Made by a program: the position numbers and the translations under genes
Shown: positions 16,525-23,069 of the stretch, in pieces
Position numbering within the stretch: the stretch's first letter is position 1
Layout: every line of letters begins with the position of its first letter
Assembly (NCBI GenBank): GCA_977017645.1
Contig: OZ360236.1
Span: 26,846,001-26,910,000, forward strand
DNA: 64,000 nucleotides
Direction: 5' to 3'
Source: Torpedo marmorata
Lineage: Eukaryota
Notes under the pieces: model-generated
Told to the model about the DNA's origin: nothing
The model's input: the letters and a program-made list of their open reading frames with translations, nothing else
Database searches by the model: none

Positions 16525-18173
16525 TTAGTGATAAAAGTAGAGAAGCAAATAACATTCTATTGTATTTGTTGATAATTCAGCAATGCTAAAGCTGATTGTG
16601 AAGAACAACAGAAACTCCATATTTGGCAAAGACAGAAAGAGACTATTTACGAAAGTAAATCACGAATATCTGTAGACACCGTGCTTGAAGTAAAAAAACA
16701 CAAATGCTGGAGAAGCTTAGCAGGTCAAACAGTGTCTTTTATGTAGCAAAGGTAGAAATACATAACCGACATTTCGGGCCTGAGCCCTTCATCAAAGCAT
16801 GAGAAAATGCCGGCAGGCATCCGAACAAACGAGTGAGGGGGGGAAGGCGGGGGGTGGCAAAGGCAGGAGATGATAGGTGGAGAAAGGAGGGAGGGGACAG
16901 CAGCAAAGAGCGGGAGGAGGGATGGCTGGGAGGGTGGAAAAAACTGGAAGGACAGGTAAGGGGGGAGGGGAAGGAAAAGGCAAGCAGGTTTAGTAGAAAG
17001 CAGAAAAGTCAATGTTAATGCCATCTGGCTGGAGAGTGCCCAGATGGAAAATAAGATGTTGTTCCTCCAATTTGCTGGTGGTCTGGGTGTAATAGTACAT
17101 AAGGCCATGGGCAGACAGATGAGTGTGGGAGTGTGACTCGGAATTGAAACAGTTGGCTACTGGGAGGCCGCTGTTGTTGCGGACGGAGAGGAGGTGCTCA
17201 GCGAAGCGATCTCCCAATCTACGACCGGTCTCTCCGATGCAGAGAATGCCACAAAGGGAGCACCGGATGCAGTAAATAAGTTCTCTGAATGTACAAGTGA
17301 AGTGTTGCTTCACTTGAAAGGCCTGTTTGGGGCCCCGGACCGTGGTGAAGGAGGAGGTGTGGGTGCAAGTGTTGCACCTCCTGCGGACACAGAGGAAGGT
17401 GCCAGGGGTCCGATGGGTGGGGAGGGATGAGTGCACGAGGGAATCACGGAGGGAGCGGTCCCTGCGGAAGGCCGAGAGGGGAGGAGAATGAAAAATGTGT
17501 CTGGTGGAGTGATCCTGTAGTAAGTGCCGGAAATTCCGGCGGATAATGTGTTGGATGCGGAGGCTGGTGGGGTGGTAGGTGAGGATGAGGGGGGGTTCTA
17601 TGTTTGTTGCATCTGGGGGCAGAGGGGGCCAGGACAGATTAGCGGGAAATGGACAAGATGCGGGTGAGGGCTGAGTTGATGGTGGTGGAGGGGAAGCCAC
17701 GTTTGTGGAAGAAGGCAGACATTTCAGAAGATCTGGACTGGAAGATCTCATCTTGAAAACAGATGCGGTGGAGACGGAGAAATTGAGAGAAGGGGATGGA
17801 ATCCTTGCAGGGGACAGGGTATGAGCAGGTGTAGTCCAGATAGTTGTGGGAGTTGGAGGGTTTGTAGTATTGATGAGCCCATCAATAACTTCAAAAGACT
17901 AGAAGTTACACAAGAACTAAAAGGCTGGGGGAGGAACGGTGGCACAATGGCCTTTATTCAGGGGGTCTGTGGGAGGAGCCACCGGGACAGTCAGCTGAGG
18001 GCATGTCCAGACATATCACCCAGCCACAACCTATACATGGTGGTTTACCACATTCACCCCTCCTTTTTAAAAGCATCCAGCGGGGTGAAGGGTATAACAA
18101 TATTTACAAAGAATTAAAATTACAAATCGAGTAGATCAGGCGGTCGAGTCCGACGCTGTGATCGGCACAGTAC

Positions 18174-21100
18174 TTATGGTGATGGGGCACGTAGCGGTGC
18201 TGCCTCCTGCCTGATTTGGAGAACCAGCATGTCTGGCATTCGCGAAACCTCGGGTGAACATGCCGGTACGTTTGGTGTCATGTCTGAATTGGGTGGTGCC
18301 TCTTGTGTGTCCTTAATGGTAGGTACGGGGGTAACAGTAACTACGGAGTGTTCGAGGGCGGCGGCGGGTCCCAGTGCTCCTGCGGGCGCCAGGTCCCGGA
18401 TGGAGACCGTGTCTTCCCGCCCATCAGGAAAAACCACGTAGGAGTACTGGGGGTTCGCGTGTAATAATTGAACCCTCTCGACCATCGGGGCGTATTTATT
18501 GCTCCTGACATGTTTCCGGAGCAGCACTGGCCCTGAGGACGTCAGCCATGCTGGTAGGGTAGTCCCGGTGGTCTACTTTCTGGGGAAGGAAAAGAGTCTC
18601 TCATGAGGTGTAGCATTGGTGGATGTGCATAGCAGGGATCGGATGGAGTGGAGTGCCTCGGGAAGGACTTCTTGCCAGCGGGAGACTGGTAATCCCTTAG
18701 ACCTGAGGTCTAAGAGTGTGGTGTTCCAGACCGTGGCGTTCTCCCTCTCCACTTGTCCATTGCCCAGTGGTCCTGCTAGTCGCGATACCCCTGGCCAGCA
18801 GATATTGGCACTCGTCACTCATAAACGAGGACCGTCGGTCACTATGGATATAGCAGGGGTATCCAAACAATGTGAAGAGTTTGTGGAGGGATTTTATGAC
18901 TGAGGTGGCAGTGGTATCGGGGCAGGGAATGGCGAAAGGGAACCGCGAGTACTCATCAATGACGTTGAGGAAGTACACATTGCGGTCGGTGGAGGGAAGG
19001 GGGCCCTCAAAGTCGACGTTTAGTTGCTCAAATGGGCGGGTTGCTTTTATCAACTGTGCCTTGTCAGGATGGTAGAAGTGCGGTTTGCACTCTGCACAGA
19101 CTTGGCAGCTGCCGGTCATCGTCCTGACCTCTTCCAGGGAGTACGGCAGGTTACGGGCTTCACAAAGTGAAAAAGCCTGGTGACTCCGGGGTGGCAGAGG
19201 TCACAGTGGAGGGCATATAACCGGTCGATCTGTGCGCTAGCGCACGTCCCCCGGGATAGAGCTTCGGAGGGCTCATTGAGCTTCCCGGGCTGGTACATTA
19301 TATCATAGTTGTAGGTGGAGAGTTTGATTCTCCACCTCAGGATTTTATCATTTTTGATTTTACCCCGCTGCTGGTTGCTGAACATGAATGCGACTGAGCT
19401 TTGGTCAGTCAGCAGGGTAAACCTTTTGCTGGCGAGATAGTGCCTCCAGTGCCTGATAGCTTCCACTATGGCTTTGGCCTCTTTCTCCACCGCTGAGTGC
19501 CGAATTTCTGGACCTTGAAGGGTACGGGAGAAGAACGCCACAGGTCTTCCTGCCTGGTTGAGGGTAGCAGCCAGTGCGAAGTCGGACGCGTCACTCTCTA
19601 CTTGAAAGGGAGTGGACTCGTCCACTGCGTGCATTGCTGCTCTGGCAATGTCCCCTTTTATGAGGCTGAAAGCCTCAAGTGCCTCCTCTGCAAATGGAAA
19701 AGTGGTGGACTTGAATAGGGAGCGGGCCTTGTCCGCATAATTAGGGACCCATTGAGCATGGTAAGAAAAGAAGCTCAAGCACCTTTTGAGGGCTCTGAAG
19801 GTGTGGGGAAGCGGTAGTTCCAACAGGGGGCGCATGCGGTCGGGGTCGGGACCGATGACAACACACCCCAGCATTACGAGTCGGGTGGTTCCGAACACGC
19901 ACTTATCCTTGTTATAGGTGAGGTTAAGTGCTTTGGCCGCCTGGATGAACTTCCGAAGATTGTTATCGTGGTCCTGCCGGTCGTGACCGCAGATAGTGAT
20001 GTTATCTTGGTATGGAAAAGTGGCCTTTAATTTGCATTGGTCCACCATCCTGTCCATCTCCCTCTGGAAGACAGATACCCCATTTGTGACCCCAAAGGGG
20101 ACATGCAGGAAATGATAGAGTCTGCCGTCCGCCTTGAAGGCTGTATAGGGGCGGTCCTCCCGGTGAATGGGGAACTGGTGGTAGGCAGATTTGAGGTCTA
20201 TGGTGGAGAATAGCTTATATTGGGCTATCTGGTTCACCATATCTGTGATGCGTGGTAGAGGGTATGCGTCAAGCTGTGTAAACCTATTGACGGTCTGGCT
20301 ATAATCTACCACCATCCTGCTTTTCTCCCCGTTCTTGACTACCACCACCTGGGCCCTCCAGGGACTCGTGCTCACCTCGATGATCCCTTCCCCAAATAAT
20401 CACTGCACCTCTGACTTAATGAATGCCCTGTCCCCTGTGCTGTATCTCCTGCTTTTGGTTGCCACGGGTTTACAATCAGGGGTCAGATTGGCGAACAGTG
20501 TTGGGGGCGGGATCTTGAGTGTGGATAGACCGCAAGTAGTGTGGTGTGACAAAATATTTCTGCCGTTTTTAAGAAATTGGTGATTACCGACAGTAATTGG
20601 TGGGAGGGGCCCATCATACTCCATAGTCACACTTTGGAGGTGACTCTGGAAGTCAAGGCCCAGTAGTACAGGTGCACACAGTCGGGGCATGACCAATAGC
20701 GTGAAGTCCCGATATTCAGTGTCATGCACCACTAGCGTCGCTACACAACCACCCCGGATGTCTGTTGTTTGCGACTCGGAAGCCATGGCAACCCTCTGGC
20801 TTACTGGCTCTGTCTTGAGGCCACATAGCTGTACCGTGTCAGGGTGGATGAAGCTCTCTGTGCTGACTGTGTCAAACAGGCAGTTTGTTCTGTGTCCATC
20901 GACCAGGATGTCCATCATCGACCTCGCGAGTTTGTGGGGTGCACTCTGATCGAGTGTAACTGACGCCAATGTTGAGTCGCTGTCTTGATCCGATGCGATG
21001 GAGTGCCTGCTGTCCCGGGATGGCGGCACCCTGCGTCGGCGCGATGGCGTGGAACAAAATGACCGCTCCCATGACTCGCACGTGTTGGCCGCGGGTAAGT

Positions 21101-21991
21101 AAGATGGCGGGGACGGAAGTGACGACACGCAAGATGGCCACCCCCATAACTCGCACGTGTTGGCCGCGGGTAAGTAAGATGATGGCGACGGAAGTGATGA
21201 CACACAAGATGGCCGCCCCCAAGCCTAGCACGTGGCGGTGCTCGATCCCGCTCGCGGTTTAGATCTACAGACCTTAGCGAAACTGCCTTTCTTCCCGCAG
21301 CTGGAGCAGGTCGCTTCTCGGGCCGGGCAACATTTCCGGGTTGCTTTTCAAGTCCGCAGAAGTAGCATTTCTCGGACTCGCGGCTGACGGCTGCTGTAGT
21401 CGATTCACCGGCATGGTGTGGGGTCTACGGTATCCATGGAGCCCGCGGGAGATCACGCGCCTGTATAGCATCAGAGTTCTGTAGCGCGGCCTCAAGTGTA
21501 TCGGCCAGCTCGATCGCGGAACGGAAGGTGAGGTCAGCTTGTTCCAGCAGCAGCTGGTGCACATACACTGACCTGGTCCCCGTAACAAAAGCGTCTCTTA
21601 CTAAGAGGTCTGCGTGTTGTTCGGCCGTCAGTCCCTGGCAGTTGCAGGCCCGCACGAGTGTTTGTAGGGCCCGTACAAACTCTGCGCTCGACTCCCCGGG
21701 CCACTGCTGCCGCGTCGCTAGCCTGTGTCTCACATATACAGTATTAACAGGCCGTATATACTGCCTTTTAAGGGCATTCATAACGTGTTCATAAGTCTGC
21801 AGATCTCGGATTATGGAGTAGACTCGAGGGCTTACCCTAGAGAGGAGGACCTTGCATTTTGCAGCTTCTTCTTGTACTTTGATCTCCTCCAGGAACGACT
21901 CAAAACAGGTTAGCCAGAGTTCGAAAGCATTGCCAGCCTTTGGTGTTTGTGGATCGAGGTCCAGTTTGTCTGGTCTCAAGACATTCTCCAT
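18174..21991 (-). pseudogene. Gypsy gag-pol, multiply frameshifted
   Basis: ORF fragments 21425-21991 (gag), 20400-21203 (PR), 19116-20375 (RT/RH), 18697-19119, 18573-18818 and 18174-18527 (IN). Confidence 0.92.
21065..21220. repeat. 75-bp tandem duplication in the Gypsy gag-protease linker
   Basis: ctcgcacgtgttggccgcgggtaagtaagatg at about 21075 and 21150; translates as a 25-aa repeat. Confidence 0.9.
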
Positions 21992-23069
21992 GCTTACAAT
22001 TTTGCCAATAAAATTGATGAGCCCATCAATAACTTCAAAAGACTAGAAGTTACACAAGAACTGAAAGGCTTTTATTGGCAAAAGAATGGAGCTACATTCG
22101 TGCTGGTGATCTGTCCCGGACTGGGGGAGGAGCAGCGGCACAATGGCCTTTATTCAGGGGGTCTGTGGGAGGAGCCACCAGGACAGTCAGCAGAGGGCAT
22201 GTCCAGACATATCACCCAGCCCACAACCTATACATAGTGGTTTACCACAAGTATATGTCGAAAGCTTGTCTCCTGAGATGGAGACAGAGAGATCCAGAAA
22301 GGGGAGACTGTTATCGGAGATGGACCAGGTGAGTTTGAGATCGAGGTGGAAGTTGGACGCGAAGTGGATGAGGTTGACGAGCTCATCGCGGGTGGATGAG
22401 GCAGCCCCGATGTCGTCGTCGATATTTTTCCAGATAGTTGTGGTAAGGGACATGACCTGGTCTAACGAATCCCAAGAAACATCCGAAGAAACATGTACTT
22501 ATATGGAAAAGTCTGTTTGAATGTTCTGGAAAGCTGGAAGTTTGTCTGTAAAACTATGCAACTAGTGAGCATGATGGTGAGACTAGTTGCATGTGGCTGT
22601 GCCTCTTGCTGTAACAGAGTTCTCATGCTTCACAAAGCAATAATAAATTACGGTGAAATTTGTAACCGTATTTTGTTCGTTTGTCAAGTAATCTCAGGTC
22701 CACTTTCACATGTAGACCAAGTAAATATCTGAGGATTGGAGGCTATGAGCCTTGGCTTTTGGAAGGGTTGAGTAAAACCTGGAACAGGTAAAACAAGATG
22801 CAGGGGTTGACTTTAAAGTCAAATTTCCTGTCATCCAGTATAACTTCAATGTAATGGTAAATTGGGGAAGAGCTTTGAGAACAAGTAATTTTGGAACCAC
22901 TTTTTCTACCACAACCATAATTGACAATTGCTCTTTGTGGGTTTTTTATTTAACAGAAGCCAACAACAAAACTTTGGTCACTGGACTTTGAAGACAGTGG
23001 ACATAAAGCTAGTTGAGAAGAACACTAGACTTTGAAATTATTGTAAAATGGGGAGACAAGACCATATGG

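Follow-up and report, generated by a model that had tools for sequence, protein, structure and literature searches.

A primer-binding site that covaries with its own LTR points to tRNA-independent self-priming in a non-chromoviral Gypsy lineage of Torpedo marmorata

The window analysed here, a stretch of 64,000 nucleotides of Torpedo marmorata contig OZ360236.1, carries on its minus strand a 4.4 kb Ty3/Gypsy element whose primer-binding site (PBS) forms the complement of a segment, or arm, of its own 5' LTR. The PBS starts 1 nt past the LTR, and PBS and arm vary together across families. The pairing is lineage-wide, and the reading that suits it best is self-priming, independent of tRNA, by a Gypsy lineage that is not chromoviral. 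This reading, which the initial annotation had put forward from a single copy, is strongly supported at the level of sequence by covariation, by conservation in distant families and by the lack of any match longer than 5 nt to a tRNA 3' end in a limited sample. Taking all forms of self-priming jointly, we give it a probability of nearly 0.9; the form in which an internal primer is cut from the 5' R region, and the PBS covaries with its own LTR arm, appears probable. Self-primed reverse transcription has been proven in the fission-yeast element Tf1, and in animals the available parts of the literature tie it to Tf1/sushi chromoviruses. To this the window adds dense natural covariation, a conserved AAA/RCC junction and a promoter geometry that suggests an internal primer. 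The features of the element are as follows.

22250 to 22254, minus strand: target-site duplication ATACT, 5' side (a 5-bp duplication flanking both ends)
22015 to 22249, minus strand: 5' LTR, 235 bp, TG...CA, its terminal CA (22015) placed with the help of the 3' LTR and the ATACT duplication
22147 to 22155, minus strand: TATA-like box GAATAAAGG, predicted promoter element
22118 to 22124, minus strand: initiator-like CCAGTCC, with the predicted transcription start, from spacing, at the A at 22122
22084 to 22122, minus strand: predicted leader of 39 nt preceding the primer arm; in sister families it measures 37-61 nt
22070 to 22083, minus strand: LTR arm, complement of the PBS and predicted self-primer, 3' end at 22070
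22076 to 22071, minus strand: poly(A) hexamer AATAAA inside the LTR arm, read from the sequence
22066 to 22069, minus strand: GCCT adjoining the predicted cut site, pairing with GGGC at 22024-22021 and prolonging the primer helix
22030 to 22052, minus strand: inner U5 hairpin TAACTTC / GAAGTTA, from folding
22000 to 22013, minus strand: PBS, 14 nt, beginning 1 nt past the LTR
18120 to 21991, minus strand: gag-pol (Gag with tandem zinc knuckles, protease, RT, RNase H, integrase), without chromodomain
18053 to 18068, minus strand: polypurine tract, read from the sequence
17871 to 18052, minus strand: 3' LTR, 182 bp, sharing about 96% identity with the 5' LTR over the aligned part; 52 bp, leader and arm among them, are missing
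17866 to 17870, minus strand: target-site duplication ATACT, 3' side, matching the 5' side

The TG...CA ends of the LTRs, the target duplication, the polypurine tract and the domain order identify the element as a Ty3/Gypsy LTR retrotransposon. Its Pfam domains are Gag (a weak match), protease, RT, RNase H and integrase, in the Ty3/Gypsy order, and its best RT relative among solved structures is Ty3. The gag-pol of the window copy is disrupted by stops and frame changes. A 5-bp target duplication was found in 32 of 48 sister copies with two LTRs. Between the zinc knuckles and the protease (21085-21215) lie two to three tandem copies of a unit of about 60 bp, which also occurs, in variable copy number, in ray relatives such as P0001. 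The element is inserted in another retroelement (22255-22500 and 16990-17865), whose frame continues across the target duplication; a Pfam search of this flanking retroelement gave no match, but the motifs in the C-terminus of its RT and in its GIY-YIG-like part look like those of Penelope elements. The 52-bp gap of the 3' LTR lies between two AG microhomologies, and other copies are deleted differently in the same region. The lost segment spans almost exactly the predicted long primer, and it was considered as a footprint of the mechanism and rejected for want of recurrence: among 30 of 100 pattern matches examined, six were LTRs of the lineage, all with different ends and none identical, and the exact-junction matches examined (L298, L312) belong to another repeat.

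The complementarity described in the initial annotation is real, as confirmed in the window copy. Read on the minus strand, the PBS (22013-22000) is TTTTATTGGCAAAA and the arm (22083-22070) is TTTTGCCAATAAAA, an exact 14-nt complement. The spacer between LTR and PBS is a single A (22014), and the gag ATG (21991) follows the PBS after 8 nt, as had been noted. Shuffling the letters of the 235-nt LTR 100,000 times gave a complement of 13 nt to a stretch starting 0-5 nt past the LTR just once, and one of 14 nt never. The pairing, 14 bp at 1 nt, also lies within the definition used to predict self-priming in silico for the plant elements Tcn1 and TAR (at least 10 bp, 0-5 nt past the LTR), as given in the available portion of that survey (PMC6317226).

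Copies of the element were then compared within the same genome (6.2 Gb). The 30 copies most like the query, picked by that likeness, had both arms identical and were uninformative on covariation, and a sister family found with a divergent Gag query had arm and PBS altered together. The copy search used only the LTR end, TTTTATT and the gag start, avoiding selection on the LTR arm. This pattern of LTR end, PBS core and gag start had 30,270 matches in the genome, against 188 for a reversed control pattern, and 90 of the 100 matches listed were examined: the first 30, and 60 picked mostly for a varied PBS. The best-pairing stretch, by which the arm register was chosen, lay at a still constant 53-57 nt from the LTR end in 87 of these 90 PBS-selected copies; three had no such stretch. 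Positions 1-7 of PBS and arm are near-invariant. At the variable positions 8-14, Watson-Crick pairs occupy 567 of 609 cells, as compared with 300 +/- 12 (maximum 350) in 2000 shuffles among copies, and positions 15-21 are paired at chance (171 versus 168). Indeed, pairing stops sharply, position 14 being paired in 72/87 copies and position 15 in 10/87. With one copy per distinct PBS (46), 288 of 322 cells are paired, against 155 in shuffles. Perfectly paired 7-mers are of 24 different types; among the 15 types found in two or more copies, 12 pair perfectly and G-U pairs are absent from all.

Moreover, RNAalifold (47 rows) recovers the primer helix unaided, with two-sided changes at all seven variable pairs (7/7), the compensatory change between the two 14-mers that had been named as a check. 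The covariation score is 0.371, as against 0.138 in shuffles and at most 0.098 for slid registers. In the variable part of the primer helix, G-U pairs fill 4 of 329 cells; the adjoining U5 stem has them in 30 of 180. Because the copies are related, the significance obtained from shuffles is overstated. Kinship, however, cannot produce complementarity at 24 different words with the neighbouring seven positions at chance. One copy, L079 (G000:C1:764542), has the LTR arm of one subfamily and the PBS and gag start of another, with 11/14 positions paired, and looks like a recombinant between co-packaged families.

These data bear directly on whether a host tRNA, or a fragment of one, primes the element instead. 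The window element does contain one TGG, 7 nt past the LTR and within the PBS, where such a primer could anneal, and in another Gypsy group of this genome TGGCGA lies up to about 6 nt past the LTR. The 90 PBS regions were compared with 40 host tRNA genes (9 anticodons, from 61 listed), a small sample that leaves the tRNA explanation some room; over all copies the best complement was 5 nt at a tRNA 3' end and 8 nt anywhere in a tRNA. No more than 17 of 87 copies have G at PBS position 8, and the variable 7-mer has 46 forms that track the LTR arm, a stronger argument against tRNA priming than the small tRNA sample. We regard priming by a tRNA as scarcely credible. An argument that tRNAs cannot contain UUUU was dropped, TTTT being present in 10 of the 40 sampled genes. 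Sites of tRNA type do occur in other Gypsy elements of this genome: L289, L294 and L295 have a TGGCGA-like PBS and belong to elements that are presumably Mag-like, and L286 and L288, of another group with integrase before RT that we assume to be Gmr1-like, have a TGGGGGCTCGTC-like PBS.

Complementarity also extends to distant relatives. A metagenome scan kept 80 loci, 53 of them with a Gag start and 48 of those with the ATG and at least 90 nt upstream; a perfect complement of at least 9 nt was found in 43 of these 48. From the scan a distant set of 32 families was assembled, one locus each, chosen by eye, two of them re-added from five skipped loci. The initial annotation had made conservation in relatives one of its tests, and 28 of the 32 distant families have a duplex of 9-21 bp starting 1 nt past the CA, never reached by 200 shuffles each; it is absent from four, and in two of these the DNA upstream is shorter than 120 nt. 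In 26 of the 28 families AA closes the arm, and in 25 of the 28 RCC comes next; each of these 25 has a possible GGY partner downstream, which is a short motif. Named protein relatives of the lineage include sea anemone and nematode, the closest being from rays and sharks. No relative was found among the viral contigs searched, and an ESM Atlas search with Gag returned generic Gag clusters only. In several distant families (L167, L170, L202, L210) the duplex reaches the gag AUG itself, and may there control translation as well.

The position of the arm over the polyadenylation signal raises the question of whether the duplex serves masking only, that is, whether it hides the poly(A) signal of the 5' LTR (or controls gag translation 8 nt downstream) and something else primes. 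AATAAA lies within the arm in at least 83 of 87 ray copies, AATAAA or ATTAAA does so in 16 of the 28 distant families, and the partner of the arm is present solely after the 5' LTR, all of which would suit such a role. The remaining 12 distant families, however, pair without a canonical hexamer in the arm, and four of them have it elsewhere in U5, outside the duplex. Nor would masking need a duplex that starts exactly 1 nt past the CA, or an avoidance of G-U pairs, and it leaves no other primer site between LTR and ATG, which follows 7-13 nt after the PBS. Masking as the sole function thus seems quite improbable. With self-priming, the pairing would hide the 5' poly(A) signal as a possible side effect.

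If the arm is the primer, it remains to place it within the RNA. A transcription start near 22083, at the arm itself, as the initial annotation proposed, was not borne out. No TATA-like box was found 20-38 nt upstream of the arm in any of 87 copies, and a TATA-like box lies 30-32 nt before the initiator-like CAGTCC in all 83 scorable ray copies (83/83), one motif being missing in the other four of 87. This fixed spacing, together with the empty interval before the arm, leads us to predict a start at 22122 rather than 22083; the start is probably near 22122, 39 nt upstream of the arm, and the primer probably internal. The initiator-arm spacing itself varies among ray families (37-39, 49 or 60-61 nt). 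TATA-like words are seldom found upstream in distant families, and for that reason the promoter argument is drawn from the ray families. Directly past the predicted start lies an interrupted palindrome, GTCC-G-GGAC (22113-22121), with GTCC-A-GGAC or similar in many sister families, possibly a dimerisation or promoter element. Leader structure was dropped as evidence for the upstream start: the leader (22084-22122) shows no folding excess over shuffles (mean z 0.02), and such structure would not discriminate anyway.

A strict Tf1-type arrangement would have transcription start at the arm (about 22083), with the first 13-14 nt of the RNA as primer. The sharp end of pairing between positions 14 and 15 is what one would expect if the primer ended there, and a second initiator-like word, CCATTC, lies just upstream of the arm (A at 22087) in several families. 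Alternative start sites are moreover used by Tf2, according to the available part of that report (PMC5341516). The promoter geometry described above argues against this arrangement, as does the range of duplex lengths, 9-21 bp, in distant families. RNA polymerase II starts are usually purines, whereas arm position 14, its first letter, is a pyrimidine in 87/87 copies and position 13 is T in 34/87. On balance we consider a start at the arm unlikely.

Folding predicts the pairing of arm and PBS. The predicted fold of 22083-21989 has a z of -4.8, and in 46 local folds of sister families, leader included, the predicted primer helix has a median pair probability of 0.92. In the RNAalifold result this helix continues as a stem of 4 bp in which GCCU pairs with the end of U5, with 99.4% of cells paired and many G-U pairs, and the U5 of sister families folds better than shuffles (mean z -1.89; below -1 in 40/46).

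From these elements a mechanism may be proposed. RNA polymerase II would start at the initiator near 22122, giving a transcript with the 39-nt leader followed by the arm. The arm is predicted, from folding and alignment, to pair with the PBS in a helix that runs on into the 4-bp GCCU/U5 stem, the LTR end being bulged out. By analogy with Tf1, the RNase H of the element would cut at the helix junction AAA/GCC (22070/22069), and the 3' end so made, annealed 1 nt from the LTR, would be extended by RT over the spacer A and U5. The strong-stop DNA would then, as in Tf1, jump to the 3' R through the short stretch between cut site and poly(A) site; with the arm sitting on the poly(A) hexamer, 10-30 nt of R would remain past the cut for this first strand transfer. 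Finally, plus-strand synthesis would in each cycle write that part of the primer which is paired back into the PBS, as happens with tRNA primers. Such recopying would explain both the strict Watson-Crick covariation and the sharp limit at 13-14 nt. The rarity of G-U in the primer helix and its frequency in the U5 stem fit a recopied PBS beside an RNA stem under ordinary selection; the rare G-U would also agree with enzymatic selection that strictly favours Watson-Crick pairs. A splice-made primer was rejected as not needed, the arm being contiguous in the DNA; in several distant families, moreover, the next letters are ACC and not GCC.

The PBS might instead pair with the arm that is repeated in the 3' R and be primed by a cut there, the 5' leader then serving as homology for the first strand transfer. 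This would give the 37-61 nt leader a function, and the length of the residual primer would again equal that of the duplex; sequence cannot separate the two arms, that of the 3' LTR being identical to the 5' one in 37 of 48 two-LTR copies. The partner of GCCU, however, lies near the LTR end, about 45 nt past the arm; the poly(A) site probably precedes it, in which case the 3' R would lack it, and the 5' arm, 55 nt from the PBS, would fold first, as the high pair probability of the local folds indicates. Priming from the 3' end is in our view very improbable, and a primer cut from the 5' R is preferred.

The lineage shares its Ty3/Gypsy domain order, and a PBS complementary to its own 5' LTR rather than to a tRNA, with Tf1/Tf2 of Schizosaccharomyces pombe, Tj1 of S. 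japonicus and Tf1/sushi elements. As in Tf1, a U5 stem lies beside the primer helix; Tf1 is reportedly dependent on this U5-IR. The two differ in the primer itself. In Tf1, as described in the part of the source available, the PBS is paired by the first 11 bases, and the RNase H cut falls between bases 11 and 12 (PMC7175516), whereas the duplex measures 13-14 bp in the window lineage (9-21 in relatives) and the arm is probably not at the 5' end of the RNA but 37-61 nt further in. Unlike Tf1/sushi, the lineage has an arm that overlaps the poly(A) signal, tandem zinc knuckles, a mostly YxDN RT and no chromodomain. The absence of the latter, stated in the initial annotation, was upheld: no Chromo match (E 0.05) and no Tf2-type SH3 match were obtained in six of six long relatives, and no chromodomain was seen in the precomputed domains of the 120 best RT matches or in the C-terminal frame of the window. 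A search of the same genome with PF24626 gave no match. The element would work like Tf1 but lacks the chromodomain expected of a Tf1/sushi member.

Among 123 relatives (proteins P0169-P0283; window motif at about 20010), the RT catalytic motif is YxDN, with asparagine for the second catalytic aspartate, in 90 and YxDD in 25, with eight not parsed, and both forms are present among ray families and among distant families. To our knowledge, it is unusual for an active site to toggle between Asp and Asn in this way within a successful lineage. Gag relatives, many of them fragments, have both zinc knuckles in 65 of 168 cases and at least one in 93. Tandem CCHC knuckles in Gag are a trait of Mag elements. 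In a quick RT-RNase H tree of 72 rows (8 of 80 candidates were left out for want of one long RT match), a branch with full support separates the window element, the proteins of rays and sharks and every metagenome row from six other Gypsy copies of the genome, which lie about 3 changes per site away and of which three have the TGGCGA-like site; the TGGCGA-PBS elements, at that same distance, are about 28-33% identical to the window lineage in RT-RNase H. With its single outgroup and unnamed anchors, the tree shows the coherence of the lineage, not its clade identity. The Mag lineage (A-, B- and C-clades), Cigr-1 and MolGy also measure about 4.5 kb, with short LTRs and marine animal hosts, in the available portion of their description (PMC6238403). 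A motif search in five supplementary files of that paper, one picture PDF lying outside the search, found nothing.

Self-priming has been predicted in silico in plants for Tcn1, a Ty3/Gypsy chromovirus, and for TAR, of Ty1/copia, which shows that it arose outside Tf1/sushi before; non-chromoviral plant Gypsy groups are tRNA-primed in the part of the survey available (PMC6317226), whereas the window lineage is non-chromoviral, with named protein relatives from animals. More generally, the accessible text of the literature ties self-priming to Tf1/sushi, Tcn1 and the copia element TAR, another form being proposed for Skipper (PMC7175516, PMC6317226, PMC4600332, PMC5341516, PMC5006619, PMC3601003, PMC6238403, PMC12440569, PMC8220671). 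Our search, whose scope left out Repbase Reports, GyDB and most subscription journals, found no description of self-priming in this lineage, nor of a YxDN Gypsy RT. Repbase entries are said to mention self-primers in some animal Gypsy families.

We tentatively suggest, as something rather less than probable, that a non-chromoviral animal Gypsy lineage evolved its own self-priming, in which a mid-R primer cut at AAA/RCC masks the poly(A) signal and rewrites the PBS, with a mostly YxDN RT. If self-priming holds, tRNA independence would be commoner, or would have arisen more often, than described. Such elements would also escape control by tRNA-derived fragments, and would be overlooked by annotation based on a tRNA-type PBS. 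Furthermore, the dozens of natural arm and PBS variants, together with the fixed AAA/RCC junction, offer ready material for studying the recognition and cutting of an RNA-RNA duplex by RNase H, and bear on whether the primer must be the 5' end of the RNA.
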